Shown: piece by piece, positions 1-30,541 of the stretch
Position numbering within the stretch: the stretch's first letter is position 1
How the letters are laid out: each line of letters opens with the position of its first letter
DNA from: Gammaproteobacteria bacterium
Lineage (GTDB): Bacteria > Pseudomonadota > Gammaproteobacteria > Steroidobacterales > Rariloculaceae
NCBI GenBank assembly: GCA_004357505.1
Contig: SMWC01000113.1
Span: forward strand, 1-32,596
Reading direction: 5' to 3'
Length of the DNA stretch: 32,596 nucleotides
Translations under genes and position numbers: made by a program
The notes under the pieces: generated by a model
What the model was told of the DNA's origin: nothing
What the model saw: only the letters and a program-made list of their open reading frames with translations
Database searches by the model: none

Positions 1-1062
1 AGCCTGCCGTGGCTGTCATGGCTCGGGCCCTACGTTTGGCTGCAAGCGATCATCATCGTCGTCGTCAGTCTGGCTCTCGCCGTTGCCTCTGAGAGGCTCA
101 TCGTCACGACCATCGGAAAGCTCGCCAAAAAAACCCAGAGTCAACTTGACGACCGGATTATTGAGGCGCTAAGACGGCCACTTTTCGTCAGTATCTTCTT
201 CATCGGCCTCGCCGTGGCAACCTACCGGCTGGAACTCGCGCCGACTCTGACGAGCGTCACGCTGGCGTGCCTGGGCACGATCGCGACGTTCATCTGGTTG
301 GGATTTCTGATCCGACTGGCCGGGGAGGTGTTGGCGATCCTGAGCCGAATCAGCGGCAGATACGAGTTCGTGCAGCCGAGCACGCTACCGTTGTTCGACA
401 ACTCGGCCAAGCTCATATTGATGCTGGGCGCGCTGTATTTCATCTTTCTGGCCTGGGGCATCAATGTCAGCGCGTTGCTCGCCTCAGCCGGTATCATCGG
501 CTTGGCCTTGAGCTTTGGCGCCCAGGACGCGCTCGCGAATATCTTCGGCGGCATGTCGATTCTCGCAGACCGTCCATACCAGGTCGGTGACTACATCACC
601 TTGGACACCGGCGAGCGAGGTGAAGTCACCCACATCGGTCTGCGTAGCACACGCCTGCTGACCCGCGATGACGTCGAAATCAGCATACCGAACAGCGTGA
701 TGGGTAACGCGAAGATCGTCAACGAGAGCGGCGGTCCCTACCAGAAGTTCAGAATTCGTATCAAGGTGGGCGTTGCTTACGGTAGCGACCTGGACGAGAT
801 CGAGCAGGTTCTCGTGCAAACGGCCATAGACCATGAGGAAATTTGCGACACGCCCGAGCCTCGCGTGCGTCTGCGCGGGTTCGGCAGCTCAAGCTTGGAT
901 TTCGAACTACTGGCGTGGGTGGAGCAGCCGGTGTTCAGAGGCCGCTTGGAACACGAGCTAAACTGTGCAGTCTATAAAGCCTTCGCTGCGAACGGCATTG
1001 AGATTCCGTTCCCGCAGCAAGACCTGCATATCAAGACCCCGAACCCGCAGCTCCCGTTGTAG
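1..1062 (+). CDS. MscS-family small-conductance mechanosensitive channel; 5' end lies outside the window
   Basis: Frame +1 has no stop from nt 1 to the TAG at 1060-1062, so the ORF-track start at 214 is only an internal GTG. Translating 1-213 gives hydrophobic helices plus KLAKKTQSQLDDRIIEALRRP. This is followed by GLALSFGAQDALANIFGGMSILADRPYQVGDYI...GEVTHIGLRSTRLLTRDDVEISIPNS, the pore-helix/beta-domain pattern of the MscS family. Confidence 0.85.
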   Translation, partial: SLPWLSWLGPYVWLQAIIIVVVSLALAVASERLIVTTIGKLAKKTQSQLDDRIIEALRRPLFVSIFFIGLAVATYRLELAPTLTSVTLACLGTIATFIWLGFLIRLAGEVLAILSRISGRYEFVQPSTLPLFDNSAKLILMLGALYFIFLAWGINVSALLASAGIIGLALSFGAQDALANIFGGMSILADRPYQVGDYITLDTGERGEVTHIGLRSTRLLTRDDVEISIPNSVMGNAKIVNESGGPYQKFRIRIKVGVAYGSDLDEIEQVLVQTAIDHEEICDTPEPRVRLRGFGSSSLDFELLAWVEQPVFRGRLEHELNCAVYKAFAANGIEIPFPQQDLHIKTPNPQLPL

Positions 1063-1678
1063 GATTTGCGTTATCGCGGTACTCGATCCCGGCCGGCAGC
1101 GAGATCTCCCCAAGCATGGGCTCGGGCACGAGCTCGAGACGCCGCGCGCTCGCTGGGAGTTGAACGTAGGGCAGCGCTACCGAAGCAGAGGGCGGGAGCT
1201 CGATAAAGTCGAGCGTCGCCGCTGACGGCTCGGCGTAACCAAGCTGCGTGGCCTGCACATTCTCTTGAGCGACTCGCCATTGCGCCTCGAACTCAGCGTC
1301 GGCCGTTACCTGCGCCGCCGCTTCGGCCCGCCGAGCAGCAGCTTGAGCGTAACCTTCACGGTCACGGACTGCAGCACGTAGGACGTCCGAATTTGCCTCC
1401 CGTTGCTCACGCAACTCCTCATCCGCACGAGCTGCTAGCGTCGACGCGGCGCGGCGCGCATTGATGCACTCGGCGTCGCCCGCCGTTGCTTCGCGGTCCT
1501 GATTGCAACGCGCGAGGGTGCCTTCCCTGGCGATGGAGTCGTCCATGAATTGCATGAAACTGCGTGGTCTGATCTCCGCAGAACAGCCTGCTAGATGGGG
1601 GGCGATGAGAACTAGAGATAGCAGCACGCCCCGCCTCAAGGCCTTTGCGCCGAACACAGCGATGTATCGAACCACCAT
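1031..1678 (-). CDS. Putative lipoprotein with an EexN-like two-Cys motif and an Ala/Arg/Glu-rich helical region
   Basis: Internal Met gives MVVRYIAVFGAKALRRGVLLSLVLIAPHLAGC, a signal peptide with a lipobox Cys. Next comes SFMQFMDDSIAREGTLARCNQDREATAGDAECINARRAA, which resembles the C-x(n)-C-x-NA motif of EexN-family lipoproteins. The rest is low-complexity helical sequence. The start is chosen by signal-peptide logic; the ORF extends to 1729. Its 3' end overlaps the mscS 3' end by 32 nt (convergent). Confidence 0.5.
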   Translation of the reverse strand: MVVRYIAVFGAKALRRGVLLSLVLIAPHLAGCSAEIRPRSFMQFMDDSIAREGTLARCNQDREATAGDAECINARRAASTLAARADEELREQREANSDVLRAAVRDREGYAQAAARRAEAAAQVTADAEFEAQWRVAQENVQATQLGYAEPSAATLDFIELPPSASVALPYVQLPASARRLELVPEPMLGEISLPAGIEYRDNANPTTGAAGSGS

Positions 1679-1817: not shown

Positions 1818-4800
1818 TTACGGCTGCCTGTCGACCACGGCGCCGGTCGGGTCTAGTACCAGTCCGAGCAGGTCGGGCCAGTCTCGGCTCAACAGAGCAG
1901 CGCCCGCCGGCAGCGCCTTCGCCGCGGGCTCAGCGAGACTGAGCTCGTAATACATCAGCCGCCCGAGACCGCGGCCGCCCACCAGGCGAAGTTGCTCGCC
2001 GCGCGGCGTGGCGATCGCCGCACCTGCCTCCAGACCCGCTGCGAGTAGATGGCTGTCATAGACGGCTAGGTTCTCGCCAGTGATCAACAGCCGGTGCACC
2101 CAGTGGTCGGTCTGGGCGATCAGGTACCCCCCAGCCTCGGTGAAGCCAACCCACCGTACCGGATGTGGAAAATTTCGTGGCTCACCCAGCGCCTCAACGT
2201 TGAGCGGATCCCAGAGCTGAACCCGACCCGAGGCATCTCCGGTCGCGAGCATGGCGCCGTCCGCTGAGAACGCCAGCGTCAACACGGCATCCTGGGCCCG
2301 CGCCGATTGCAGCGATAGCGAACCGGTCGGCGAGGCAATAAAAAGGTTGCCGGCACTGTCACCCACCGCTAACCGATCTGATTGAGGTGAGAACGTCACA
2401 GACAGCGCAGCACCGTTGACGGGTACCTCGCCGGATAGCTCACCGTCTGCGGCACTCCAGAGTCGCGCACTGTCGTCGGCGCCGCTGAGAATCCACTCAC
2501 CGTTTGGACTCAGCGCGACGTCGTGAACGGGGCCTTCGGGGTGACGCATGAATGGCGCCAGTGGCGCGCCGCTCGCGATAGCCCAGATTCGGACCACGCC
2601 GTCATCGCCACCACTGACGACGGCCCCCTGAGATGCATCGACCGTTATGCTACTAACACCGCCTTGATGCCCAATGTAATCGATGCCTTCGTCACTTTGG
2701 GAGCCGCTTTGCAGCTGACTCGCCGTAAGAACCTGCACATGGCCGTCGCGAAACCCTAGCGCAGCGAGTCGCCCAGCTCGGTCGAGCGCGAGTGCAGAGA
2801 TATCCAGATCCGTGCCGGTTCCAGGGTCCTTATCGTCCCACCGCCAAAGCTGCAGAAGCGATCCACCAGCGGTTAGCAGATGGCTGCCGTCTGGGGCGAG
2901 CCGAGTTCGAATTCCGCCGTCGAGCTGATGAACACGCACATTCAGCGGTTCGCGCTCACCCGCAAGGTCCCGAATGACCACATGACCGTGTAGCGCTTCG
3001 AAGGCGACCGCGGAACCATCCGCAGCGACGCTAACGCTCTGGGGATCCACGGTCATCCCTAGGCGTCGGCGCTCCGGCACTGCCGCATCGGTGTTGCCAA
3101 GGGTCCAGACGAAGATATCGCCGCCGTCATCGACGCTGACCAACAGATCGCCGGTCTCCACGGCTATCAACCGCACCGGGTCCCGGTCATGGGGAAGCTC
3201 CGCCAGAATATCGCCGCGACGCGGATCCATGAGGCGAACGACGCGCGTCGGTCCGAGCAAAGCCAGATAACGCGCCTGCGGTCCCAAGACCCAATCGCGA
3301 ACACCCGCGATACCTGTCACGCTCGCGACCAGCTCACCGTCTGCAGTCCGTAGGAGACTGTAGAGGGGCGCTTGCAGGGACAACTGCTCGGCGATCGCTA
3401 TGTAATCACCATTGGCGCCGACCGCCGGCGGTAACAAAAATCCGGTCTGCGTCGCGACGCGGGCGACGGGCAAGCCCTCGTCCGTGTCCCAGAGCGTCAG
3501 CGTATTACCGGCGACGACCAGTAGCCTTGCGGCATTGTCGGCCAGGGCTAGGAATTCCGGTGTTGTATCGAACTCCAGATCTTTAACCGCACCGGCGGCG
3601 CGCAGATCCCAGAGTGCCAGCGTACCGACCGCCCCTGCTCGCGATGGGCGAGCGACGGCCAAACGCCCGTTCGAGCTGACCGTCACTTCGACCTGATCGG
3701 TGCGAACTGGATCGGAAATTGTCAGATCCGGATCAGGGTCGTCATTCCAGCCGCGAAGCTCCTCGGCGAACAGCAGGCCCCAGCGCATCAATCGCCCGAC
3801 AACGCCTTCCTTTCGATCGACGAGCGTCAGGCGCCACACCCCCTGGCGGTCCGCATCAGCCAGGCTCGCCAACGGCGAGCGCCCGATAGCTCGGAACTCG
3901 CGATGGTCTGCGACGCTCATGGGCAGCGTGAAGCTCGCCCGTGCACCGCCAGGTGCTTCAAGAGAAACCAGGACTTGCTCGTCGTCGAGATGTACGACGT
4001 CAAGTTCGAGTAAGAACGCGCCTGCCGAGCCGGGCTCGTCAACGCTGAGCTCACGACGGATCGGCAGGTGTTGCAAGGCTGTCAGCCCGCCAACAAACTC
4101 CATCTCGCTGGAGTCGTTCAGCGAGAGCCGCCGCATACTGTGATCCGGGGCTACGAGGACAAGTTCTTGCGATTCCCAGTCGACTTCCCAATGCGCAGGA
4201 GCCTCGGCCAAGCGGAAAGTCCGTCGCAGGGAGCCGTAGTCCGCACTAATTAATTGCGTCGCGAGTGATCTTGCCGGCTCTCCCTGACCCGGAATCGCCG
4301 CCGATGCCAACAGCAGCGCCTCGTCTCGACGCTCGGCTCGAGCAGCCTCTGTTGCACGTCTGAGCCAATAGGCCCCCTTGAGCTCTTCAGCCAGCTCTTG
4401 TCGATCCGGCAGGCTGCGTAACAGGTCATCCGCGGCCTGAATTTGTGCGAAGGTGTCCGCGCGCCGGCTGTGATAGATCAGGATTTCTGTGAGCAGTCCG
4501 TCTGCGTCCGCACCGAAACCTGGCAGGCGATGCAGGCGTCGATAGGTATCCACAGCACGATCCAGCGGCTGGCTCACGACCGACAGCGATTCAATGTAGG
4601 GCTGAGGAAGGACCTGCGTGTACCACCACGGAATCAAAATCATCGCGCCGGTCAAAACCGCCGCCACGAAAGCGCCGCGCCAGTTGAACGGCAGCGCGCT
4701 GCTGACCCAACGAGGGCCGAAGACAGTCCTGAAGAGCAGATTCCGCAGCGTCAACATGCCGTTGGAACCCATCGCCACCACCCCGGCCAGACGCAAAGCC

Positions 4801-5780
4801 TGTTGCGGAGCAGACCCCTGCTCCTCGGGCACTTTGGCACCTCGGCTGAGTTTGCCGAGTAGGGCCAACGCCTGGCGATTTCGCGGCGCGCGCCGAGTCA
4901 GGAGTGCGCGTATATGATTTAAGAGCGGCTCCTCGCCCCTGGCGCCTTCGGCTAGAAACCGCTCGCGCACGACCAGATTCACGTCCTCAGGCTTCCCGCC
5001 GCGGCGTACCACACCGCGGGCGATCTTCTGTGTCAGATAAGGTTGACCGCTAACCCAAGAATAGATATCAGCCAGCAATGCGTACACGCGGTCCTTTTCC
5101 GCCGCGAAACCCGCAGCCAACCTGTAGGTCTCTTGCAGCGTGAAGTCCTCAAGTTCGATGCTCGTACCTAGATCGAAAGGCGAGACGCTGCGATCCGGGG
5201 CTAGCTGCTGCGGAGTCGCAACGCCGAGCACGACGAAATTCAGCCGACCAAAATCAGGCTCTGTCGTCCGAGAGTTATAGCAACTGTGAATCGCCGTGAA
5301 GAGCTCCTTTGAAAACGGCAACTCCACGGCGCGCTCGACCTCGTCAAAGAAGATCGTGACCGGCGCCGTCGTATTGGTGAGAATGACCTCCCAGAAAAAT
5401 TCCGCCAACCGCTCGTCGTTCATCAGTGCATTTTTTTCCTGCCACCAGGTCTGTAGCTCGACCTTAAGCCGGAGCTGACGCACGATGCGGTACGCGATGC
5501 TGTAGTACCAACGCCCGGGTTCCTCGCTCTCGCCTCTCGCCCCGATCTGGGTCAGGTCGACGACCGCCGCGATCTGTCCCTCTGCGCGCAGGGTCTTGAC
5601 GGTGCGCCCCATGAGGCTCGATTTACCGCTGGCTCTGGGGCCTAGAACGTAACAGAAGCGTTGATCTCTGAGTTCCTGACACAGCGCCTCGTCGCTATCC
5701 CTCTCGATATAACATGGCCGATCAGGCTGGACCGGGCCGGCCGCAACGAAGAAATCGCCTGTATGGATCACGCTTGCCAC
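1818..5780 (-). CDS. 1320-aa AAA-like (STAND-like) ATPase / predicted TM helix / proprotein-convertase-type P-domain / WD40 beta-propeller protein
   Basis: GTG start at 5780 is preceded by AAGGAG with a 9-nt spacer. Walker A is GPRASGKS (aa 47-54) and Walker B is TIFFDEVE (aa 142-149), in an AAA-like-domain context (YIERDSDEAL...LGPRASGKSSLM). A single hydrophobic segment GAFVAAVLTGAMILIPWWY spans aa 369-387. A P-domain-like segment reads LELDVVHLDDEQVLVSLEAPGG...GVWRLTLVDRKEGVVGRLMRWGLLF (aa ~572-671). The C-terminal ~500 aa carry repeated WD40 units, e.g. GHQGGVSSITVDASQGAVVSGGDDGVVRIW and HPEGPVHDVALSPNGEWILSGADDSARLW. Confidence 0.85.
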   Translation of the reverse strand: MASVIHTGDFFVAAGPVQPDRPCYIERDSDEALCQELRDQRFCYVLGPRASGKSSLMGRTVKTLRAEGQIAAVVDLTQIGARGESEEPGRWYYSIAYRIVRQLRLKVELQTWWQEKNALMNDERLAEFFWEVILTNTTAPVTIFFDEVERAVELPFSKELFTAIHSCYNSRTTEPDFGRLNFVVLGVATPQQLAPDRSVSPFDLGTSIELEDFTLQETYRLAAGFAAEKDRVYALLADIYSWVSGQPYLTQKIARGVVRRGGKPEDVNLVVRERFLAEGARGEEPLLNHIRALLTRRAPRNRQALALLGKLSRGAKVPEEQGSAPQQALRLAGVVAMGSNGMLTLRNLLFRTVFGPRWVSSALPFNWRGAFVAAVLTGAMILIPWWYTQVLPQPYIESLSVVSQPLDRAVDTYRRLHRLPGFGADADGLLTEILIYHSRRADTFAQIQAADDLLRSLPDRQELAEELKGAYWLRRATEAARAERRDEALLLASAAIPGQGEPARSLATQLISADYGSLRRTFRLAEAPAHWEVDWESQELVLVAPDHSMRRLSLNDSSEMEFVGGLTALQHLPIRRELSVDEPGSAGAFLLELDVVHLDDEQVLVSLEAPGGARASFTLPMSVADHREFRAIGRSPLASLADADRQGVWRLTLVDRKEGVVGRLMRWGLLFAEELRGWNDDPDPDLTISDPVRTDQVEVTVSSNGRLAVARPSRAGAVGTLALWDLRAAGAVKDLEFDTTPEFLALADNAARLLVVAGNTLTLWDTDEGLPVARVATQTGFLLPPAVGANGDYIAIAEQLSLQAPLYSLLRTADGELVASVTGIAGVRDWVLGPQARYLALLGPTRVVRLMDPRRGDILAELPHDRDPVRLIAVETGDLLVSVDDGGDIFVWTLGNTDAAVPERRRLGMTVDPQSVSVAADGSAVAFEALHGHVVIRDLAGEREPLNVRVHQLDGGIRTRLAPDGSHLLTAGGSLLQLWRWDDKDPGTGTDLDISALALDRAGRLAALGFRDGHVQVLTASQLQSGSQSDEGIDYIGHQGGVSSITVDASQGAVVSGGDDGVVRIWAIASGAPLAPFMRHPEGPVHDVALSPNGEWILSGADDSARLWSAADGELSGEVPVNGAALSVTFSPQSDRLAVGDSAGNLFIASPTGSLSLQSARAQDAVLTLAFSADGAMLATGDASGRVQLWDPLNVEALGEPRNFPHPVRWVGFTEAGGYLIAQTDHWVHRLLITGENLAVYDSHLLAAGLEAGAAIATPRGEQLRLVGGRGLGRLMYYELSLAEPAAKALPAGAALLSRDWPDLLGLVLDPTGAVVDRQP

Positions 5781-5888
5781 CGAATCCCGCTCCTTTCGGC
5801 TCCCAGAAGGTCGTGCCCGCCGCGTTCGCGGACCGGGCAGATTGTAGCAGGCGCGTGAGCTATCATTGCCGCCGGGACTCTCTACCCG

Positions 5889-6167
5889 TTGGAATCTTTA
5901 GGCATGACGATCTGCCATTCCCACAATTTGACTCGAAAATCCACGCACTCGAAACCTTACGGCATTCGCGTGAGCCTACCGGCCGGGGATTCACTCAATC
6001 GTCTTCTCGGTGAGGACTGGGAGCAGTATCACTGGTTCGCAACGGCGGAGGAGCGGGACACCGTACTGGCAGATATGGCCAGCGAACACCTCTATTCGCG
6101 GCGAGGTGACCGGCCCCATGTCATCCATGAGACGGTAGAGGCCTCCAAAGAGTCGGAATCCGGCTGA
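5889..6167 (+). CDS. Small hypothetical protein (92 aa from TTG; 87 aa if it starts at ATG 5904)
   Basis: Open frame divergent from the AAA/WD40 gene, with codon third positions moderately GC-rich. I recognise no motif and see no convincing RBS. Confidence 0.35.
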   Translation: MESLGMTICHSHNLTRKSTHSKPYGIRVSLPAGDSLNRLLGEDWEQYHWFATAEERDTVLADMASEHLYSRRGDRPHVIHETVEASKESESG

Positions 6168-6266
6168 CTCGCTCGTATAATACCCGCCCTTTGTAGCCCT
6201 GCCGGCACCCTACGTCGATTGGTTCGGGGACAGCGTCGACACGATAGCTTGCTGGAGACTGATGAC

Positions 6267-7637
6267 ATGGTCGATCTGATGAAGATTGCGCGGACCGAGG
6301 CCAGCGGCGGCGATCTGCTAGGGCTCCTTGGGAGCCTGTTCGAGCCCGCCGACATCCGGCCCGCGGGCTATCCTGACGCCGTGATCTGGCAGGGCGGGCA
6401 CCCTGACGAGAACGTCAATGCAGTCGCCCACTCGCTGACAGATGCTTACGCGCTACTCGGAACGATCGCAGCCATTGACATCCTCGGACTCCCCTTCTAC
6501 GCGGTACCCATGTGGGCGCAGTATCGTCACGATCTGAAGCTAGAGCCCTTGAGTTGGTTCGGCCACATGCCCTGCACATCGATCAAGTGGTCGACTGCCG
6601 GCGATGCCTACGTCGATGATGGCAGCGGTAAGAAAGTCGTTGTGATGGGTAAATCCGGCAATGCGCCGCTGCGCACCCAGGCTGGCGTGTACTGCAACGT
6701 CCGCCCCTACGGTCCAATCACCGTCGTCCGCTGCATGCCGGCCCTCCCGTACTCTCAGGATAGGGCAGCCTTCGACGTCAGCGCAGAAACCGGAGTCATT
6801 CACTCTGAAATGAACACGCCGGGCGTGCAGATAGCGTATGCCAACCGTCGCTTTCTGAAGATGGTGCACGAGACCGGTCACCTCGGTCGCGTTGCCTTCA
6901 AGCCGACTCAGGCGATGGAGGACGGCGTCAATGCCGGGCTCCTGTCGTGGCTTCTGCAAGGCACGAAGTTCAACATTGGCCGAAAGTACACCGTGGACGG
7001 CTATGTCGAGCACCGCAAACTCGTAGACCGCATCATCGCGCTCCTGCCTGCAGACTTCAAAGACGGGATGGACAGCTGGAGCGGACAGATCGAGCAGCAC
7101 ATTGCCGATACCAACTACGGGCTGCTTCTTTGGGACCTCATTCAGAAGCAGGACACGATTGTCATCGCAACCGATCTCGATGGCGACCGTCTCACCGATC
7201 TACTCGCAGACGTGTCCGATCCGCTGCGCGCGTACGGGCAGCGGATCATCGATCACCTCGGCGTAGATGCCGAGATGAACGACCTCTGGGGCGAGATGGG
7301 CTATACGACGGGCAATGGCCGTGACATGACGTCGATCATGTACCGCATCAAGGGCCCGCCGATTCACGAGCAGACCCTAGGTTCGGCCGACGCTATGCTG
7401 CGGAGGTTGCTAAATGGCGACGAGTCGATGGGCGGTACGAAACGTCCCTATGACCCGCGCATCCACTTCGTCCTGATCCGCAACGCCTATCGGGACGCGA
7501 ATCCGGATAATCAGGCACTTCACAGCTGGCTCGACCAGGCTCTCGCTACCTTCGACGAAGTGTATTCCGGCGAGCGCCCTGGGTTCTTGGAGGGCTACGA
7601 GCAACTCGTGGCCGCGATTAGGCCCTGGGGCACGTGA
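6267..7637 (+). CDS. Hypothetical cytoplasmic protein with a single HExxH motif (possible zinc metallopeptidase)
   Basis: The ORF track starts at TTG 6219. ATG 6267 is preferred because GGAGA lies 8 nt upstream. The motif is KMVHETGHLGRVAF (HETGH). No signal peptide, and no other family signature that I recognise. Confidence 0.6.
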   Translation: MVDLMKIARTEASGGDLLGLLGSLFEPADIRPAGYPDAVIWQGGHPDENVNAVAHSLTDAYALLGTIAAIDILGLPFYAVPMWAQYRHDLKLEPLSWFGHMPCTSIKWSTAGDAYVDDGSGKKVVVMGKSGNAPLRTQAGVYCNVRPYGPITVVRCMPALPYSQDRAAFDVSAETGVIHSEMNTPGVQIAYANRRFLKMVHETGHLGRVAFKPTQAMEDGVNAGLLSWLLQGTKFNIGRKYTVDGYVEHRKLVDRIIALLPADFKDGMDSWSGQIEQHIADTNYGLLLWDLIQKQDTIVIATDLDGDRLTDLLADVSDPLRAYGQRIIDHLGVDAEMNDLWGEMGYTTGNGRDMTSIMYRIKGPPIHEQTLGSADAMLRRLLNGDESMGGTKRPYDPRIHFVLIRNAYRDANPDNQALHSWLDQALATFDEVYSGERPGFLEGYEQLVAAIRPWGT

Positions 7638-7649
7638 TCCGGTGCCGGG

Positions 7650-8663
7650 TTAAACGCGCGGCTGAACTGCGTCCCGCCCACCGAGTGCCTTGATCGTCGG
7701 GCTGTTATCCAGCGCGTCTGCCTCGACGGAAGCGGCGCGCAGTTTCAGATGGGCGAACACCGTTCGGCCGCCCGAGATTCTGGACTGATCCACGGGGCGC
7801 ATTGCTTCCCCGGGGATGCGGACTGCCGGCAGAAGTTTCAAGCGCACCGAGCCGCGCACGTTGCCGCCAATGGCGAGGATGCGTTCGTTCGCTTCGTCCA
7901 CTTTCACGACAATGTCGCAATGGGTCCGGGCGCTAGCGCCTAAATGGAGCCGCCGTTCATCAAGCGTACGATAGGCCGCCCGTCGCGCGGTGCAAAGGAG
8001 ATCGCCCGGCTCGATGACCGCCTCGCCAACATCGTAGGCCGCAAACGCAGTCTGCGGCTGACCTTCGTCGCGAGCACGAATGGCTTGGTCGATATAGACA
8101 TGGTGCGCGATAGCGTGGCGGAAACGACTTGAGTCGCCGAGGCCGCTCTCGCACATCACCCACGAAACGAATGCTGCCGACCAGGGATCTCGCCAGCGTG
8201 CGGCGACTCCGCTCGGCCCGTTCCACGCCCGGTTCTGTCGATCAAGGATCCAGCTACCATCCGGCGTTACGGTCCAGTAACCAGCAATGGAGTCGGCGAC
8301 GCGCGCCGCTTCCGCTGCCCCGAGCCGTGGAGGCCGGCGTAACGAGCGTGGTGCTCCGGAATCGGCGCTGTCCGGGTTCGTCTGATCGACGATGTGAAAG
8401 CCAAAGAAGCCCCATTCTTGTACAGCGACGTCGACGATACGGCGCCGAACCTCAGCAGTGGAAAAAGTCCGGCACGAACCCTGCTGGATCGTCATCTCAC
8501 CAGGCGCGCCGCTGACGCGCGCGGACGGCGGCACGACATCCAACACGTCGGCAGATAATCGATCGAACGACGCCAGCGCCGCATGACTGAACACAGCGGC
8601 GGTCAGCGCGATAGCCAACGGCAAAATAGAGCTCTTCATACCAATCCCGCTAGCGGATGACAT
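7650..8663 (-). CDS. Secreted DUF2272-like protein
   Basis: ATG 8663 is preceded by GGGAG with a 7-nt spacer. The signal peptide is MSSASGIGMKSSILPLAIALTAAVFSHAALA. Motifs VQEWGFFG, PWSAAFVSWVMCESGL, GDLLC..R, HCDIVV and AIGGNVRGSV match my recollection of the DUF2272 family; this is not verified by search. Confidence 0.6.
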   Translation of the reverse strand: MSSASGIGMKSSILPLAIALTAAVFSHAALASFDRLSADVLDVVPPSARVSGAPGEMTIQQGSCRTFSTAEVRRRIVDVAVQEWGFFGFHIVDQTNPDSADSGAPRSLRRPPRLGAAEAARVADSIAGYWTVTPDGSWILDRQNRAWNGPSGVAARWRDPWSAAFVSWVMCESGLGDSSRFRHAIAHHVYIDQAIRARDEGQPQTAFAAYDVGEAVIEPGDLLCTARRAAYRTLDERRLHLGASARTHCDIVVKVDEANERILAIGGNVRGSVRLKLLPAVRIPGEAMRPVDQSRISGGRTVFAHLKLRAASVEADALDNSPTIKALGGRDAVQPRV

Positions 8664-8705
8664 CCCCACTCTCCCACATTTTCAGGCACTAGTGCGAACC
8701 GCAGG

Positions 8706-10142
8706 CTAATCGCTGTTCCTGCGCCAAAACAGTGCCCCGGACCTCCCGATTACGAACCACGCAGCGAAGCAGGCCAGGACAGCATGCACGACAAAAGAAT
8801 ACTCGAGGACCGAAAGATAACCGAACATCATGCCGTGCACATAATCCCCACCCTGTTCGATCGGCCCGCTGCCCATGAACACGGAGACGAAGACCGTGAC
8901 GATAGCCATGCTTGCCACCATGCCCAGCGAGCGCATCTTTGCCGACAGAGCGGACGCCATACTGATTTGATCCTGCTCGACACTATGCAAGATCAGCGAC
9001 ATATTCGGCGAGGAGAATAAGGCGAAGCCAACCCCCTGAGTCATCAGGACGGCGATGATATACGGTAATCCCGTCCCGATCGTGACGGTAGTTGCCATCA
9101 ATAGGCTGACCATGACGAAAAGTGCCCCCAGCGCCGCCAGCCCCTTCGGTGAGTAGCGATCCGCCAAGCGTCCCGCGATCGGTGCGATGATCGCCATGAC
9201 GATGGGCGAACTCATCAGCACGAATCCTGCTTCTTGCGGCGAAAACCCACTCAGCAGCTGCAGATAGATACTGAACAGGAAAATCATGCCGAACCCGCCT
9301 GCGTAGATCACGAACAGCCCGAGTAATGCGCCCCTATACTCCTTGTTCTGGCGAATCCTACCGACTTCCAGCATTGGCCGGGCACTACGCCTGTCGAGTT
9401 CGAAGAATGCAACACAGGCGGCGACAGCCAGCGCAAGCAACAGATAGCCAATGGCGCCACGCCCGAGTGATGCGCAAGCGAAGATCAACAAAAAGACCGC
9501 CGCGATGACACACGAACTAGCGCGCCAGTTAAGGTCGGGCGCGGAGAATCGCCAGTGTTTCAGCTTCGCTTCCACGACGATGAACGATACGAACAACGGT
9601 ACCGCGGTAAGGTAGTACACCCAGCGCCAACCCAACTGGGTGGTCACCAGGCCGGCAACGAACGGGCCGGCTGCCAGGCCCGCATAGACCGCGCCCAAGC
9701 ACAGCCCGATCGCCCTGCCGCGAGCGTGTGCCGAGGCGTTCTCGAAGAGTATGGCCATCGCCGTCGCACCCATGAACGCCGAGGCGACACCCTGCACAAA
9801 GCGCACCGTAATGATTGTCGCCATCGAGGGCAGAAATCCGATCAGCAAAGTGGCGGCGGCATAAATCAGGAGTCCGGTCTTGAACAGCGTGATCCTATCC
9901 GCGCTCTCCGCTATACGCCCCAAGGGCAACAGGAACGCCGCGCCGGCACCCAAATACACGGTCTCGATCAAGGTCAATGCCACACCGCTGGCGCTCAGCT
10001 CAAGTCCGGTCGCCGGCAGCGTTAACGCCACACCCGAATACATGAACGGAATGGCGAACTGTGTCAGGACGATGACATAGACCACCGCGTGCATGCTTTG
10101 CTCTGGCAACGCTCCGTTCGTCGAACTCCGCACCGTACTCAA
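8706..10142 (-). CDS. MFS transporter, 14-TM drug:H+ antiporter (EmrB/QacA-like) type
   Basis: About 14 hydrophobic segments over 478 aa, with a typical MFS loop GRIAESADRITLFKTGLL after TM2. The start is uncertain: TTG 10142 versus ATG 10094. Confidence 0.85.
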   Translation of the reverse strand: MSTVRSSTNGALPEQSMHAVVYVIVLTQFAIPFMYSGVALTLPATGLELSASGVALTLIETVYLGAGAAFLLPLGRIAESADRITLFKTGLLIYAAATLLIGFLPSMATIITVRFVQGVASAFMGATAMAILFENASAHARGRAIGLCLGAVYAGLAAGPFVAGLVTTQLGWRWVYYLTAVPLFVSFIVVEAKLKHWRFSAPDLNWRASSCVIAAVFLLIFACASLGRGAIGYLLLALAVAACVAFFELDRRSARPMLEVGRIRQNKEYRGALLGLFVIYAGGFGMIFLFSIYLQLLSGFSPQEAGFVLMSSPIVMAIIAPIAGRLADRYSPKGLAALGALFVMVSLLMATTVTIGTGLPYIIAVLMTQGVGFALFSSPNMSLILHSVEQDQISMASALSAKMRSLGMVASMAIVTVFVSVFMGSGPIEQGGDYVHGMMFGYLSVLEYSFVVHAVLACFAAWFVIGRSGALFWRRNSD

Positions 10143-25756: not shown

Positions 25757-28192
25757 TCATTCCAGATTACGCGCGATACGAAAGCCGATATCCTCTCTGC
25801 TATCGCTGCTGTAATTGCGGTAGGCGAGGCGCAGGTCGGTGATGGTCGCGCTCCGCCAGCTCGAGCCTCTGATCACGTGGAAACGGCCCTGTTCGGGACC
25901 CAGCGGATCAACAGCCACGGTCTCGGTCTGGGGAGAGCCGATCTCCCAGTAATCGAGCACCCACTCTGCCACGTTACCGCCCAGATCGTATACGCCCACG
26001 GCGTTCGGCGGAAAATTCCGCGCCGGCGCCGAGACATTGAAACTGTCGTTGTAGGTCACAAGCGTTGTCCGTAGCAGCGTTGCCGCCGAGACATCCGCGA
26101 AATTGCCCGAACGATCGGGGGGCGGCAAGGTATTACCCCACGGGAACGTCAGGGACTCGTCCTGACCGGCGAATCGTGCTGCCCAGGCCCACTCCGCTTC
26201 GGTCGGCAGCCGATAACCACTGCGCAGAGGTCTCACGGGAACCTGCGCACCGTCAACCTGTTCGTAGACCGGTTGAAAGCCATCGCGGATACTGAGCCAG
26301 TTCAGGAACTCGGCGATCTCATCCCAGGTCACGCGGACGACCGGCTGATCATCTTCGTTCAGGGAGACGCCGCCATACGAACCGGAGTCATGATCTGCAC
26401 GGAATGCCCGAAACTCTGCGTTGCTGACCTCCTGCACACCGAGATAGAACGCCTCGCTGATACTCACAGCCCGTAGGACTTCGTTCGAGCGGCGTCCTTG
26501 CTCGCGACGCGATGACCCCATCATGAAGTCACCCGACGGAATCAGCGTTAGTACCTGCGCAAGGCTCGTCTGCACCTCCTTCTCGTAGCCCGAGCCCGTA
26601 CTTGTATTCAACTCCTCCAGGGTCACATCGAGTATCTGCGGAAACCCCGGTTTTGGCGTGACTTCCCGCGCCTGCTCGGCGAAGCCCGCGAGTCGAATCT
26701 CGATCCGATGACTGAGCGCGGACAGTATTAGCTCGCGCGGCGTCACGCCTAGCTGCTCCCCATCAACCCAAACTTCGGCAGCGTCAGGATCGCTGCGAAC
26801 CTCGACGATCCCCATTCGCGCGGTCATCGAGAGTGTGAGCCTGCGATCGCTGTCAGCCACGACGGAGAGCTCCTGCTCGATCGAGTCGAATCCCGGTTTC
26901 GTCAATACAAGCCGATGCGGACGCTCTGGCGTAAGACGCAATGTCAGGGGCGTCTGGCCGCGATACTCGCCATCTACACTGACTGCGGCACCGGCCGGCT
27001 CGGAAGCAAGTTCGACGCGTCCATCGGCCTGTGTCAGTTCGACCTGCGGCAGCGTTTGTGGTTGGTCCGCCAAAACCGAGACGACGTCCGCCCAGGCGTT
27101 GTAGCCGCGCAGCCGAACCTCGATCAGCCGTTCCCCGGCGCTAAGCTCCATCACCAGCGGCGTCGCTCCGGTGACGGTTCCGTCCACCAGCACGGCAGCC
27201 CCGGGTGGGGCGCTGGTCACGGTGATCGGCGCCCAGTTAGGCGTCAGTTCGGCCACCAGACGCTGGTGCTCGCCGCCGCCGATGACGTCCAGCTCATGAA
27301 CTTCGGCCAGGAACCGTTCCGCGACGAACTCGATCTGATGCCGCCCGGTCGTGATCTCGGCATCGGTCAGGGGAGTGATACCAAGACGCTCACCGTCCAC
27401 ACGGACTTCCGCACGTACGTCCGGCTCGGTCGTCAGCGTCACCAGGCCCGGAAGCCGGATCATTTCGATTTCGATCGTCTGATCCGGTGCCGAAGTGACG
27501 TTGATTTCAATATCCAACGGATAGTAGCCCGCGAGCTCGGCCACAACCCGATGCGATCCCGCGCTCAAGAGCAAACGATCCCCCATTCTGATTTTCAGCA
27601 GCGTGCCCGGCAACCCGACCGTATCGGGCTCGGGTTCGACGATCAATTCGACCGACTTCGCGGTGAACGCGAACCAACCCAGTACGGCCAGTACGACAAA
27701 CGCGCCACCGACCACCAAGGCGCTGCGACTCGGTTTGACGCGCAACGTTCCGGACTTTTTCTCACCCAACGGCCGAAACGCGACTGGCGCGATCTCAATT
27801 TCATCGAGATTCGCCGCCTCCCGCGCCAGTTCCTCCAGATCGGGCGGTGCGGTATCGCCGCCGGTCACGACCCCTGAGATTTTCAGGTTCAATCGTTCTC
27901 CGCCAAGCGAACAGTCGAGCCTGGCAGTATCCAGCGCAATCGTCTCACCGTTCTTAAGCCAGCGTGTCCCGGCTACCGGTTCACCGTCGATCCGCAGATT
28001 CCGGGTGTCTCGACCGGGCTGAATAAAAAAACTGCCGTCAAGCCAGCCGATCTGAAGCGATCCCGAGACTCCCTGCAGGCGAACGTCGCTATTAATGTCG
28101 CCACCGATCGTTACCGGCAATTCGGCGGCGCTGAAATGCCGCTCTTGGCCACCGACCGACGTTGTCAGTACCCGGTGATTCGCTGCCGTCAT
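25757..28192 (-). CDS. FHA-like domain / TM helix / five PEGA repeats / FGE-sulfatase (SUMF1-like) domain protein
   Basis: The N-terminal FHA-like fold (PVTIGGDINSDVRLQ...FFIQPG...LRIDGEPV...LKNGETIAL) lacks the canonical Arg and His. The TM helix is ALVVGGAFVVLAVLGWFAF (aa ~157-177). PEGA-like units include VRVDGERLGITPL, VLVDGTVTGATPL, VSVDGEYRGQTPL and VWVDGEQLGVTPR. The C-terminal FGE-sulfatase motifs are FMMGSS...YLGVQEVSNAEF...GYRLPTEAEWAWAAR...YDLGGNVAEWV...VIRGSSW...IGFRIARN. The ATG overlaps the upstream stop (ATGA). Confidence 0.88.
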   Translation of the reverse strand: MTAANHRVLTTSVGGQERHFSAAELPVTIGGDINSDVRLQGVSGSLQIGWLDGSFFIQPGRDTRNLRIDGEPVAGTRWLKNGETIALDTARLDCSLGGERLNLKISGVVTGGDTAPPDLEELAREAANLDEIEIAPVAFRPLGEKKSGTLRVKPSRSALVVGGAFVVLAVLGWFAFTAKSVELIVEPEPDTVGLPGTLLKIRMGDRLLLSAGSHRVVAELAGYYPLDIEINVTSAPDQTIEIEMIRLPGLVTLTTEPDVRAEVRVDGERLGITPLTDAEITTGRHQIEFVAERFLAEVHELDVIGGGEHQRLVAELTPNWAPITVTSAPPGAAVLVDGTVTGATPLVMELSAGERLIEVRLRGYNAWADVVSVLADQPQTLPQVELTQADGRVELASEPAGAAVSVDGEYRGQTPLTLRLTPERPHRLVLTKPGFDSIEQELSVVADSDRRLTLSMTARMGIVEVRSDPDAAEVWVDGEQLGVTPRELILSALSHRIEIRLAGFAEQAREVTPKPGFPQILDVTLEELNTSTGSGYEKEVQTSLAQVLTLIPSGDFMMGSSRREQGRRSNEVLRAVSISEAFYLGVQEVSNAEFRAFRADHDSGSYGGVSLNEDDQPVVRVTWDEIAEFLNWLSIRDGFQPVYEQVDGAQVPVRPLRSGYRLPTEAEWAWAARFAGQDESLTFPWGNTLPPPDRSGNFADVSAATLLRTTLVTYNDSFNVSAPARNFPPNAVGVYDLGGNVAEWVLDYWEIGSPQTETVAVDPLGPEQGRFHVIRGSSWRSATITDLRLAYRNYSSDSREDIGFRIARNLE

Positions 28193-29724
28193 CCGATCGG
28201 CTCGACACAGCGCACCTCGACCGGAGCTAACTCCCGTCCAGGCAGTACGGTAAATGTTGTGCGGACATCGCGATAGCCGTGGCGACTACCAACAGCGGTA
28301 TAGTTTCCGGGCCGTATCTGAACCTGAGTGACGGCGAAGGTGCCGAGCAAGCCGACGCGATAAAGCGTAACGTTGGTGAGCTCGTCGGAGTGAAGCTCGA
28401 CAGTCACGAGCGTCGACGCGAGGACCACGAGCCGATTCAGGTCGGCGATCTGCTCTTCAAGCCGCGGTCCCGGATCCTCCACGCTCCGAGCATCCGCTAC
28501 TAAACCGCCGGCGTCGGCCAGCACACGGTCGTCGAACAACAGGGTCGGATTACCGATCAGGTTAACCAGCTTCGCCTCCAGATCGGCCCTCAGCACAGAG
28601 CGCTCGAGTCCGGCCTGAGCAAAAACCAGCGTTGCATCGGTCACGAGCAGATCGCGGTAGAGTTGAATGGCCCGCTCCCACAGCTCACGGCGCTCAAAGG
28701 CCAGCGCGCGTGCTTCGACCAGCGCGATCTGTTCCAATTTCTGTCCCTGCTGTGCCTGGATTTGGCCATCGAGCGCCTCGGCAGAACCCGGCCGCAGGAT
28801 CAACGCCTCGCCGAACAGTTCAAGGGCAGCGGCGAATTCTTCTTCCGCCAGCGCCGTCAGACCTTGCGACATTCGTGTCTCGAAGCGTCGATTGTCGATA
28901 CGTGCGGTGACCGCAGTCAGCGCCGACCGCGCCGGCGCCCAGGATGGGTCGAGTCCGAGCGCTGCCCGGAAAGCTCGCGCAGCCTCCTCCAGATCACCCT
29001 GCCGTTCGAGCTCGGTGCCCTGCTGTACGAGCACGAGCACCTCCGGAAGACGCTCGGCCCGCTCGAGTCCCGCTTGAGCGGGCGCATTGCCAGCTTCTAT
29101 TCCGATAACGAGCTGAAATTGTTCTAGGGCCAGTCGCGCATTGCCGGCATCGAGTGCCGCGTTACCGGCGCTGAGCGCGGCCGTGATGATTTCCGCCGAC
29201 CGGCCGAGTAATTGCTCGCCAATCTGCAGCGCGTTGGCGTATGCCGGTACGGCGTCCTGGAACGCGTCCGCAAGATAAGCGTCGTCGCCGGCACGAGAGC
29301 TCTGCTGATACTCCTCCCAGGCGTCTCCTCCCCACTCGGCCGCGGCTAGTCCGTCCAGCCGAGCCTGTTGAGTGAGTAACTCCGCCAACAACTTTTCAGC
29401 CTGATCCCTGAGCGTCGCTAGCTCTGTCGCGGTCAGCACAGGCCCCTCAGGTTCCTCGGGCAAGACCTCTACAGGCAGCGCCAGCACCGGTTCCTCGGGC
29501 TGTTGCTCCGCGACCCACAGCGGTAATACGAATATGACGGCTAGCACCAGCAGCAGCGACACGACCAGGGCGGTACCCACGAGTAGCCGCGAGTGCCGGC
29601 TGTCTCTCTGCCGGGCAGCTGTAACGGGCTTGACGCGCGCCAAGCCCAGTTTGACCGGGATGATGGTCTCTTCGTGAGCGGTCGCTTGCGGGTCTGTGTC
29701 TGTCACAACAGTCGGCTTACTCAT
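28189..29724 (-). CDS. Single-pass membrane protein with TPR-like repeats and a C-terminal PEGA-like beta domain
   Basis: The TM helix is LLVGTALVVSLLLVLAVIFVLPLWV (aa ~47-72). It is followed by repeated A-x-x-x-Y/F-x-x-A-L helical pairs (AYLADAFQDAVPAYANALQIGE, LALEQFQLVIGIEAGNAPAQAGLERA, EEAARAFRAALGLDPSWAPA, AAALELFGEALILRPGSAEA). The C-terminus reads VTLYRVGLLGTF...IRPGNYTAVGSRHGYRDVRTTFTV. The start overlaps the kinase stop by 8 nt. Confidence 0.8.
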   Translation of the reverse strand: MSKPTVVTDTDPQATAHEETIIPVKLGLARVKPVTAARQRDSRHSRLLVGTALVVSLLLVLAVIFVLPLWVAEQQPEEPVLALPVEVLPEEPEGPVLTATELATLRDQAEKLLAELLTQQARLDGLAAAEWGGDAWEEYQQSSRAGDDAYLADAFQDAVPAYANALQIGEQLLGRSAEIITAALSAGNAALDAGNARLALEQFQLVIGIEAGNAPAQAGLERAERLPEVLVLVQQGTELERQGDLEEAARAFRAALGLDPSWAPARSALTAVTARIDNRRFETRMSQGLTALAEEEFAAALELFGEALILRPGSAEALDGQIQAQQGQKLEQIALVEARALAFERRELWERAIQLYRDLLVTDATLVFAQAGLERSVLRADLEAKLVNLIGNPTLLFDDRVLADAGGLVADARSVEDPGPRLEEQIADLNRLVVLASTLVTVELHSDELTNVTLYRVGLLGTFAVTQVQIRPGNYTAVGSRHGYRDVRTTFTVLPGRELAPVEVRCVEPIG

Positions 29725-30541
29725 ATTCCAACAGCATAGATTCTAAGACATTCAGGAATGGTCGCATGCCTTCCGCAGCGGATTTTTGCCCAGGACTCAG
29801 CGTAGCCTGGACAAGTTCGGCCAGGGCCCGCACGCCACCGTCGGAACCATCCGCCATCGTCACGACCGGTGGACTCGGCGCGGTCTGCAACACGGCCTGG
29901 GTCGGGTTCGCGCCGAACGGCAACCGCCCAGCCAGAAGCTCATAGATCAATACGGCAAACGCATGCACGTCGTCAGCCAGTTCGGGCGGCGCCCCTTGCC
30001 GGCGTGCCAAGCGCTCGTAGGCGAGCGTTCCACCGCCTCGCGGCGTTTTACCCCCTGTGTCCGCCGCGAGCGCGAAGTCCACAAGCCGCACCTCGCCTGT
30101 ATGGCTAAACAACACGTTGCGGGCCTTCACGTCGCGATGCACCGTGCCGCACTCGTGAACATAGGCGAGCGCAAGAGCCACATCCCGCGCCGCCCGAGCC
30201 CAGTGCCGCGGGTGAGCACCCAATAGCGGCACCAAGTCTCCGCCATCCAAGTACTCGGTAATCAGGCCCGGCATTTCCTGTACGGTGATCAAGCCCAGGG
30301 GCTTCAACACATGCGCATGGCACAGGCTCTCCAAGACCCCGAACTCACGGCGAATCAGCTGACTGGCTGCCGAGCGTGTACCCAAGTCGGCCCTGGGTAT
30401 TTTCAGTGCAACGATGACTCCGGCAATGGTTGCGGCACGCCAGACCTCGGACATTCCTCCCCGGCCCAACAGTGCGTCGATCTGCACGCCATTGCTAAGC
30501 GTGGTACCGGGCGTGACAGCTGTCTCGTAACTCACGAACAC
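29717..30541 (-). CDS. Hanks-type Ser/Thr protein kinase, catalytic domain only (274 aa)
   Basis: Gly-loop LGRGGMSEVW; VALK with Lys47; catalytic loop HRDVKARN (Asp137, Asn142); DFA in place of DFG (Asp155); GTLAYERLA; DVHAFAVLIYELLAGRLPF. No TM helix or sensor domain. The start is GTG with no obvious RBS. Confidence 0.85.
   Translation of the reverse strand: MFVSYETAVTPGTTLSNGVQIDALLGRGGMSEVWRAATIAGVIVALKIPRADLGTRSAASQLIRREFGVLESLCHAHVLKPLGLITVQEMPGLITEYLDGGDLVPLLGAHPRHWARAARDVALALAYVHECGTVHRDVKARNVLFSHTGEVRLVDFALAADTGGKTPRGGGTLAYERLARRQGAPPELADDVHAFAVLIYELLAGRLPFGANPTQAVLQTAPSPPVVTMADGSDGGVRALAELVQATLSPGQKSAAEGMRPFLNVLESMLLEYE

Follow-up and report, generated by a model that had tools for sequence, protein, structure and literature searches.

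A predicted transmembrane AAA_35 ATPase with a P-domain and two WD40-type propellers from marine Gammaproteobacteria

We analyzed a stretch of 32,596 nucleotides (contig SMWC01000113.1; hereafter the window) from a gammaproteobacterium of the Rariloculaceae, in which a gene at 1818..5780 on the minus strand (GTG start; stop codon at 1818-1820) encodes a protein of 1320 amino acids (aa). The product is a single-pass inner-membrane protein, in which an AAA_35 nucleotide-binding oligomerization domain (NOD) is followed by a transmembrane (TM) helix, a stalk, a P-domain, and two β-propellers. Three independent indicators from sequence comparison support an N-in/C-out topology, with a cytoplasmic NTPase and periplasmic repeats. 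We favor, by a modest measure, the reading that this protein is a transmembrane NOD-type sensor switch domesticated from a two-gene conflict system.

Domain architecture and predicted topology

The gene is the sole long open reading frame (ORF) in the interval 1818..5780. A first-pass annotation, made from the sequence without database searches, had placed the ORF, its motifs, and a hydrophobic stretch at aa 369-387 correctly. A protein search returned at least 120 full-length homologues (~1320 aa, 41-100% identity) of the same architecture, which bear only the database names 'AAA-like domain-containing protein [Gammaproteobacteria bacterium]' or 'WD40 repeat protein/subtilisin-like proprotein convertase family protein'. 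Across 30 aligned homologues, conservation extends from end to end, with a mean column identity of 55%; the mean identity per domain is 50-60% (ectodomain 50%, ATPase 60%), and that of the TM segment is 42%. This is a real gene, with an architecture beyond chance. The protein was modeled with AlphaFold 2 (AF2) in two pieces split at the TM helix, aa 1-420 and aa 391-1320.

The NTPase module (aa 14-353; 4722..5741, minus strand) consists of a P-loop domain, a helical lid with a GxP motif, and a winged helix. Pfam AAA_35 (PF14516) matched aa 14-257 with E 4e-29 and 101.9 bits against a cutoff of 27, covering positions 3-243 of the 331-position profile, and the expected C23-Y24-I-E26-R27-D-S-D30 motif was found. 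In the Walker A motif, G47-P-R-A-S-G52-K53-S54 (5619..5642, minus strand), G52 and K53 are invariant among the 30 homologues, and GK[ST] is also retained in relatives from other phyla. The Walker B motif, T-I-F-F-D146-E147 (aa 142-147; 5340..5357, minus strand), lies within FFD146E147VE; D146 is invariant, E147 occurs in at least 90% of the homologues, and the DE pair is kept in both AAA_35 subtypes described below. The GxP lid motif, G245-Q-P247-Y-L-T250-Q251 (5028..5048, minus strand), has invariant columns in the same alignment. It is among the two most conserved peptide patterns, and is common to effector-type AAA_35 paralogues too.

The AF2 model of aa 1-420, built from a 16-sequence alignment (pLDDT 86.6, pTM 0.79), resolved into a P-loop α/β domain followed by a lid of helices (aa 215-295), a winged helix (aa 299-353), and one long helix (aa 367-390). 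In a Foldseek search against the PDB, the top match of this module was archaeal Orc/Cdc6 (1w5t, E 7e-9), followed by 2qby and 1fnn. The archaeal AAA+ protein SSO1545 (2fna) was matched with E 2e-8, and Avs4 (8dgf, E 4.6e-5) and Avs5 (9jap, E 3.6e-4) appeared at lower ranks. A PDB sequence search with the N-terminal profile gave only a P-loop-level match to RecA. The modeled fold is STAND-like and of the Orc/Cdc6 type. The first-pass label of a STAND-type AAA-like module is thus a fair one, because the invariant G245-x-P247 in the lid is the STAND-type GxP signature (Leipe et al. 2004). By profile score, the AAA_35 domain represents a divergent, TM-bearing subfamily, since the effector-type paralogues reach 247-511 bits across the whole profile, versus 101.9 here. 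Pfam scans revealed no effector domain in the protein, in line with the first-pass annotation, and the AAA_35 module already begins at aa 14. An NCBIfam scan gave a match to Hda alone, at noise level.

A single TM helix is predicted at aa 367-390 (4611..4682, minus strand), with R368 on the cytoplasmic side and W386-Y387 in the aromatic belt on the outer side. The hydrophobicity maximum of the whole protein falls at aa 369-387, where the Kyte-Doolittle mean over 19 residues is 1.62. Although the sequence of this segment drifts, ~19 residues remain charge-free and hydrophobic in all 30 orthologues, and the flanks are conserved (P-F-N-W-R before the helix and W-Y-x-Q-x-L-P-R-P-Y-I after it). Lysine and arginine occur twice in the 15 residues preceding the helix and not at all in the 15 following it. 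Of the 57 relatives examined in other phyla, ~38 carry a hydrophobic segment right after AAA_35, at aa ~361-416, with Kyte-Doolittle values of 1.6-2.9 and often 2.0-2.9; ~10 more, mostly cyanobacterial, have one at aa ~450-475, and the remainder have none or only distant ones. The domains behind the helix in these relatives are typical exported types (PEGA, CARDB, SdrD_B, 3keto-disac_hyd, LRR).

The two sides of the helix also differ in cysteine content. Unpaired cysteine is expected to be avoided in the oxidizing periplasm. In the 30 orthologues, cysteine makes up 1.20% of aa 1-365 versus 0.018% of the residues after the helix (5 Cys in ~28,000 residues), a ~65-fold depletion. The protein itself has four cysteines, all before aa 168, and none in the 930 residues of aa 391-1320 (window 1821-4610, minus strand). 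We infer from this depletion that the C-terminal part is periplasmic. The ATPase requires cytoplasmic ATP, and therefore N-in/C-out is the only consistent topology. Helix conservation, the equivalent position of the segment in most of the 57 relatives, and the drop in cysteine frequency thus support both the single membrane-spanning helix and the coupling of a cytoplasmic NTPase to a periplasmic sensor that had been proposed from the sequence.

The predicted periplasmic part, which offers a large putative binding surface, was modeled by AF2 with a pLDDT of 87.4 and a pTM of 0.84 (aa 391-1320). It begins with a helical stalk of about seven helices (aa 391-511, with the helices modeled at aa 393-511; 4248..4610, minus strand), followed by an all-β region modeled as a β-sandwich (aa 518-680; 3741..4229, minus strand), which holds the P-domain (aa 592-670; 3771-4007, minus strand). 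The strings HLDDEQVLVSLEAPGG … GVWRLTLVDRKEGVVGRLMRWGL, on which the first-pass P-domain call was based, are present in the protein. P_proprotein (PF01483) matched pieces of the protein with 21.4 bits, just above the cutoff of 21, and it matched 16 of 16 orthologous segments tested, with a best E of 3.7e-14. A P-domain family profile, searched against the PDB, had a single match of note, to the P-domain of a kexin-like protease from Aeromonas (3hjr, E 3e-4). By these profile matches, the P-domain is genuine despite its marginal score here. No subtilisin domain (Peptidase_S8) was matched anywhere in the protein by Pfam, with the whole protein or with pieces of it, and the region ahead of the P-domain is formed by the stalk and the β-sandwich.

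Two propellers complete the protein, which agrees with the WD40 repeats first recognized at the C-terminus. The first (aa 686-980; 2841..3725, minus strand) fits seven blades and corresponds to weaker WD40-type propeller matches in Pfam at aa ~700-990. The second (aa 994-1281; 1938..2801, minus strand) consists of canonical WD40 repeats in approximately seven blades; WD40 (PF00400) was matched with E 6.5e-21, and many WD40 and Beta-prop Pfam families matched at aa ~990-1225. The counts of strands (~26-27 in each propeller) and blades are estimates from the DSSP string of the AF2 model. Profile matches of the second propeller in the PDB included the Nostoc protein 2ymu (E 8.7e-43) and Apaf-1. 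Foldseek matched the C-terminal part to tandem-propeller proteins, including Apaf-1 and 2ymu, over >600 columns (E 1e-26); this search is dominated by the propellers and silent on the P-domain, which was assessed by the profile searches above.

Genomic context and relatives in other phyla

A genome scan with one genome per species yielded 592 relatives, 23 of which are full-length (27-77% identity). All 23 loci belong to uncultured Gammaproteobacteria, including Candidatus Rariloculaceae (Rariloculales) and Woeseiaceae (Woeseiales), and several sit on complete chromosomes of 4.4-6.0 Mb. The window neighbors of the gene include MscS (214-1062, plus strand), an MFS transporter, an aldehyde-dehydrogenase-family gene, an amino-acid-kinase + PUA gene, and a thiamine pyrophosphate (TPP) enzyme; we read the aldehyde-dehydrogenase-family and amino-acid-kinase + PUA genes as proA and proB, respectively. 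When the window neighbors were compared with the 23 loci by tblastn, proA, proB, the TPP enzyme, and MscS recurred close by across Rariloculales and Woeseiales metagenome-assembled genomes.

The window contains neither a second AAA_35 module nor a TIR domain, and none was found within ±10 kb at the 23 orthologous loci. The N-terminal module had no match in phage records, and on plasmids it found only distant relatives (<40% identity) from cyanobacteria, Chlorohelix, and Abditibacteriota; for the gammaproteobacterial clade, no plasmid or phage copies were found. PADLOC gave nothing meaningful for the protein, only a WD40-driven match to HEAT-ARM_XIII (E 1.2e-8) and P-loop-only matches to PDC-S01 (E at least 0.004), with no model for the AAA_35 core. 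The gene had originally been placed in an accessory-looking block. That description fails, because the locus is syntenic over two orders, the clade lacks plasmid and phage copies, and PADLOC is empty for the core. The gene is a vertically inherited, single-locus, chromosomal lineage-core gene. Such housekeeping surroundings of a core gene, which the first-pass annotation had itself named as a refuting outcome, weaken an Avs-like defense reading but leave the architecture and the topology untouched.

Outside the orthologues, the nearest relatives belong to Acidobacteriota, Chloroflexota, Myxococcota, Bacteroidota, Cyanobacteria, Actinomycetota, and Verrucomicrobiota. In these proteins AAA_35 is followed by a TM helix and then by variable repeats (WD40, LRR, TPR+CARDB, or PEGA), and the 57 examined are 33-41% identical to our protein over aa 1-365. 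Of the 52 loci whose upstream sequence is long enough, 38 have a second AAA_35 gene directly upstream (loci L023-L080; examples are L024:9524-12828, L031:1816-8576, and L070:8828-14499). This paralogue is encoded on the same strand, often with overlapping stop and start codons, and is 22-29% identical to our protein. Each of the 10 upstream partners scanned combined an AAA_35 domain of 247-511 bits with N-terminal effector-type domains, namely TIR; Pkinase+TIR; BTAD+Pkinase+TIR; CHAT with or without TIR; Trypsin_2+TIR; or bDLD1+TIR. Both paralogue types are probably active, since both keep the GK[ST], DE, and GxP motifs.

PADLOC matched the effector domains of these relatives to defense effectors (ThsB-like TIR, LmuA-like protease), and PADLOC 2.0 held no model for the AAA_35 core of the two-gene systems. 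On sequence grounds, the two-gene AAA_35 unit is a candidate for an uncatalogued conflict-type system. The superfamily is large, with 4,493 clusters at 50% identity matching the aa 1-420 profile at E <=1e-30. Relatives occur on cyanobacterial and Chloroflexota plasmids amid insertion sequence (IS) elements. On the Nostoc flagelliforme plasmid pNFSY06 (locus L081; NZ_CP024791.1, 209193-213114), tandem 'AAA-like domain-containing' genes stand amid IS481, IS630, and IS5 transposases and are followed by a CHASE2-domain gene fragment; this is apparently an IS-disrupted copy of the two-gene system. At a few loci, a more similar second AAA_35 module is fused into the same ORF. In one Anaerolineales locus (L028:9917-13909), both modules share a 1330-aa ORF, and the helix follows only the second, at aa ~731. 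Two AAA_35 stretches per protein were also seen in many top matches of a representative search.

A small ORF of 87 aa (5904-6167, plus strand; within a longer ORF at 5889-6167) is divergent from the gene. It has no known domain and carries the motif M-x-I-C-H-x-H-N-L … G-I-R-V-x-L-P … D-W-E … E-R-D … M-A-x-x-H-x-Y-x-R. By tblastn, it was found upstream and divergent in 20 of the 23 loci; the other three have no upstream sequence. Its 186 homologues are all named 'hypothetical', none has a Pfam domain, and those with an organism name are gammaproteobacterial. As the 87-aa protein has no signal peptide, it should be cytoplasmic. The divergent pairing proposed in the first-pass annotation therefore stands for a small ORF in every locus with upstream sequence, the conserved ORF being 5904-6167 rather than 5714-6013, which shows no conservation and was rejected as a partner. 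The pairing does not stand for a 472-aa ORF with an H-E-T-G-H motif of the HExxH type (6219-7637, plus strand). This ORF has no Pfam or NCBIfam match, is 77-78% identical in three close loci only (L002, L003, and L005), and is absent from the remaining orthologous loci; it was likewise rejected.

At 15 loci, an additional conserved ORF of ~220-250 aa lies between the 87-aa ORF and the orthologue of our gene, on the strand of the 87-aa ORF (L022 at 9227-9979, minus strand; L004, L007, L008, L010-L013, and L015-L021). These loci include most of the Woeseiaceae and several others. We call this ORF kinase-like, as it has an H-N-D-L-x-x-x-N motif and a weak Pkinase match of 19.6 bits, which is under the cutoff.

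Downstream and co-directional lies a lipoprotein gene (1031..1678, minus strand), for which the ATG at 1678 was chosen as the start within an ORF at 1031-1729. Its product carries an L-A-G-C lipobox and, at the N-terminus, an EexN-like motif, and it matched NCBIfam NF033894 (Eex_IncN) with E 1.2e-7 and 31.5 bits, below the cutoff of 33; in sequence it is EexN-like in motif only. No conjugation genes were found among its window neighbors. By tblastn, the lipoprotein is downstream in 16 of the 23 loci and was undetected beside the other seven orthologues. No intrinsic terminator was found between the two genes.

On the other side of the gene, an extended -10-like element, TGCTACAAT (5841..5849, minus strand), lies 61 nt upstream of the GTG and occurs once in the window. 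Its CTACAAT core aligns in five of seven short intergenic regions, and the element is probably the gene's own promoter. No operator or inverted repeat was found in the aligned divergent intergenic regions, which share only this element.

Two further features of the window were recorded. A secreted 339-aa DUF2272 protein (86 bits; 7650-8669, minus strand) has an N-terminal signal-peptide-like stretch and is not conserved beside the orthologues. At 25757-30541, 20 kb from the gene, three genes on the minus strand encode a 274-aa Ser/Thr kinase (Pkinase, 95 bits), a 511-aa TPR protein, and an 811-aa protein that combines four PEGA domains with an FGE-sulfatase domain; this block is apparently a separate signaling or conflict-like module.

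The sensor-switch reading and its alternatives

In the mechanism that we propose, a periplasmic ligand would bind the ectodomain (propellers, P-domain, and stalk), and binding would be relayed through the TM helix and the stalk to the cytoplasmic module. The released module would exchange ADP for ATP and, by analogy with its structural relatives, oligomerize at the membrane. The resulting oligomer would form a platform engaging a cytoplasmic output. In other phyla, the operon itself would supply this output, namely the soluble AAA_35 paralogue with its fused TIR, Ser/Thr-kinase, CHAT, or trypsin effectors. The best candidates in the gammaproteobacterial clade would be the ever-present 87-aa protein and, where it is encoded, the kinase-like protein, and the lipoprotein may serve as a periplasmic co-factor. 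The cue is most likely a conserved signal from the envelope or the environment and not a fast-evolving protein of an invader or phage, because the clade is vertically inherited, single-locus, and effector-less, with an ectodomain as conserved as the ATPase.

Several points weigh against this reading. The Kyte-Doolittle mean of 1.62 is borderline for a TM helix, and the segment holds an internal proline and glycine. WD40 propellers are classically cytoplasmic. ATP-dependent oligomerization is assumed by analogy from the Orc/Cdc6 and STAND relatives. The link to the 87-aa protein consists of conserved adjacency only, which in a syntenic region could mean inherited gene order. The kinase-like ORF is absent in the window and in the closest relatives; here the start codons of the two divergent genes are 123 nt apart. 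Neither an output nor an effector was identified for the protein.

A bolder proposal, which we put forward tentatively, concerns the TM-bearing AAA_35 proteins as a whole. They would be undescribed 'outside-in' NOD receptors, in which one TM helix links an extracytoplasmic sensor to a cytoplasmic STAND-like ATPase that hetero-oligomerizes with a soluble effector paralogue. Our protein would be their domesticated, effector-less descendant, rewired to the 87-aa protein with or without the kinase-like protein so as to sense the envelope or the environment. The sensors of such a class may be WD40, LRR, TPR, or PEGA repeats, and the partner effectors may be TIR, kinase, caspase-like, or trypsin domains.

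Weaker again, and in our view unlikely, is the alternative that the protein acts as the sensing half of an anti-phage or abortive-infection system, with an effector AAA_35 paralogue (e.g., TIR-AAA_35) encoded elsewhere in the genome. The closest non-orthologous relatives lend it some weight, as they are paired with AAA_35 genes that bear TIR, kinase, CHAT, or trypsin domains, their effector domains match PADLOC defense effectors, and they occur on cyanobacterial and Chloroflexota plasmids amid IS elements. STAND NTPases of the MNS clade also occur with such effectors in conflict systems (PMC8195603). The orthologous clade looks different, however: no second AAA_35 lies in the window or within ±10 kb at the 23 loci, the chromosomal place beside biosynthetic genes is kept over two orders, PADLOC has no match to the core, and plasmid or phage copies are lacking. 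The ectodomain also matches the ATPase in conservation, which gives no hint of an arms race.

Two other explanations seem quite improbable to us, and neither ahead of the other. The first is that the protein is a membrane-tethered transcription regulator whose winged helix binds the divergent promoter and, upon a periplasmic signal, controls the 87-aa gene and, where it is present, the kinase-like gene. Such a regulator, similarly improbable, would resemble ToxR or CadC but have an Orc/Cdc6- or MalT-style ATP switch. AF2 places the winged helix (aa 299-353) right before the TM helix, DNA-binding Orc/Cdc6 initiators are the top structural matches, and the divergent gene arrangement is strictly conserved. 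A winged helix is, however, a standard non-DNA-binding part of every STAND NOD, and relatives in other phyla keep it yet use protein effectors. The aligned intergenic regions, moreover, show the -10-like TGCTACAAT only, with no conserved operator or inverted repeat.

The second is that the protein is a periplasmic scaffold or envelope-maintenance factor with TolB- or BamB-like propellers, whose ATPase powers assembly or turnover together with the downstream lipoprotein. A lineage-core, single-locus, evenly conserved gene with an EexN-like lipoprotein downstream in 16 of 23 loci and with envelope-related neighbors (MscS and the secreted DUF2272 protein) would suit such a role. Yet the ATPase belongs to the switch-type Orc/Cdc6-STAND family, unlike pore-loop unfoldases and ABC-type motors, mechanical work is not obviously transmissible via one TM helix, and the lipoprotein was undetected beside seven orthologues.

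That the hydrophobic stretch forms a buried or peripheral helix of a wholly cytoplasmic, Apaf-1-like soluble STAND protein would accord with its borderline hydropathy, its proline and glycine, the usual cytoplasmic location of WD40 propellers and STAND NODs, and the presence of Apaf-1 among the structural matches, but is highly improbable given a segment that stays charge-free in 30 of 30 orthologues amid sequence drift, equivalents in other phyla that occupy the same position and are far more hydrophobic (Kyte-Doolittle up to 2.9), the ~65-fold depletion of cysteine past the helix, and the P-domain and other exported-type domains that come after it.

To our knowledge, the characterized bacterial STAND/NLR-like sensors (Avs, bNACHT) detect their ligands in the cytoplasm. 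A repeat sensor outside the cell joined to an ATP-driven oligomerization module inside would extend NOD-type signaling to extracytoplasmic cues. In two orders of marine gammaproteobacteria, the same receptor chassis is kept as a core gene that lacks an effector, and so, if the sensor-switch reading is right, the gene would be a natural test of how a conflict-system sensor turns into a housekeeping sensor. If that reading is wrong, the protein would be an ordinary, well-conserved hypothetical membrane protein.

Comparison with known systems

Our literature search found no account of the TM-AAA_35 family or of the effector-less gammaproteobacterial clade, and PF14516 appeared in no paper found. 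A 2025 preprint mentions 'transmembrane STAND ATPases' in passing as sensors, and Doré et al. 2024 predicted periplasmic sensor domains for some STAND systems. Kaur et al. 2021 described nSTAND2, a two-NTPase operon in which one member is inactive and the effectors fused to it are GT4 or HEPN. We rejected an identity with nSTAND2, as both paralogues here keep GK[ST] and DE and the effectors differ.

The protein shares several features with STAND NTPases (Apaf-1, NLR, and Avs-like proteins; Leipe et al. 2004): a P-loop NTPase with intact Walker A (including its lysine) and Walker B (including its acids), a GxP lid followed by a winged helix, and C-terminal, superstructure-forming repeats. A further hallmark of STAND NTPases, nucleotide-dependent oligomerization, would hold for it by analogy. 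As in Apaf-1, the repeats form two WD40 propellers. Its relatives carry TIR, caspase-like, kinase, and trypsin effectors. It differs from STAND NTPases in the TM helix between the NOD and the sensor, through which the repeats are predicted to be periplasmic, and in having neither an effector domain nor an adjoining effector gene. Foldseek also placed Orc/Cdc6 and SSO1545 above Avs4 and Avs5. The marks of an Avs (AVAST) system, namely a match to a defense model, an N-terminal or operon-encoded effector, and a variable or mobile context, were not found for this gene. Within the STANDs, the protein may belong to the MNS clade (family of Npun2340/2341), with AAA_35 corresponding to the Npun2340/2341 family; this lead arises from the SSO1545 structural match, the tandem gene pairs in Nostoc, and the mention in PMC8195603.

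Orc1/Cdc6 and SSO1545 (1w5t, 2qby, and 2fna) share the AAA+-like core, the lid, and the C-terminal winged helix with aa 1-420 (E 7e-9 to 4e-7). The TM-scores are 0.4-0.58, but the identity to our protein is just 13-18%. They have neither a membrane anchor nor repeats, and DNA binding is not implied for our protein. The P-domain of kexin and furin (PF01483; Aeromonas ASP, 3hjr) is a homologous β-sandwich of ~80 aa that is typically extracytoplasmic. In our protein, it stands alone between the stalk and the propellers, with no subtilisin catalytic domain ahead of it.

A further likeness is to the operons of Cyanobacteria, Chloroflexota, Acidobacteriota, Myxococcota, and Bacteroidota that combine an effector-AAA_35 gene with an AAA_35-TM-repeat gene. 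These share with our protein the TM-bearing AAA_35 module (33-38% identity to the TM-bearing member over aa 1-365), the helix position, and variable C-terminal repeats that are often WD40. In the gammaproteobacterial clade, in contrast, the upstream effector paralogue is absent and the 87-aa divergent ORF is present instead, a P-domain has been added, and the gene is chromosomal, syntenic, and single-locus rather than plasmid- or IS-associated.

Toll-like receptors (TLRs) offer an analogy only. Their cytoplasmic module is TIR, which is not homologous to the ATPase NOD of our protein. The shared plan joins a repeat sensor outside the cell, by way of one TM helix, to an assembly module in the cytoplasm. 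Among the relatives, this module would recruit a TIR-bearing partner, so that the analogy fits the two-gene systems and not directly the effector-less protein. If the outside-in reading is true, these receptors would constitute a bacterial counterpart of TLR-type surface surveillance.

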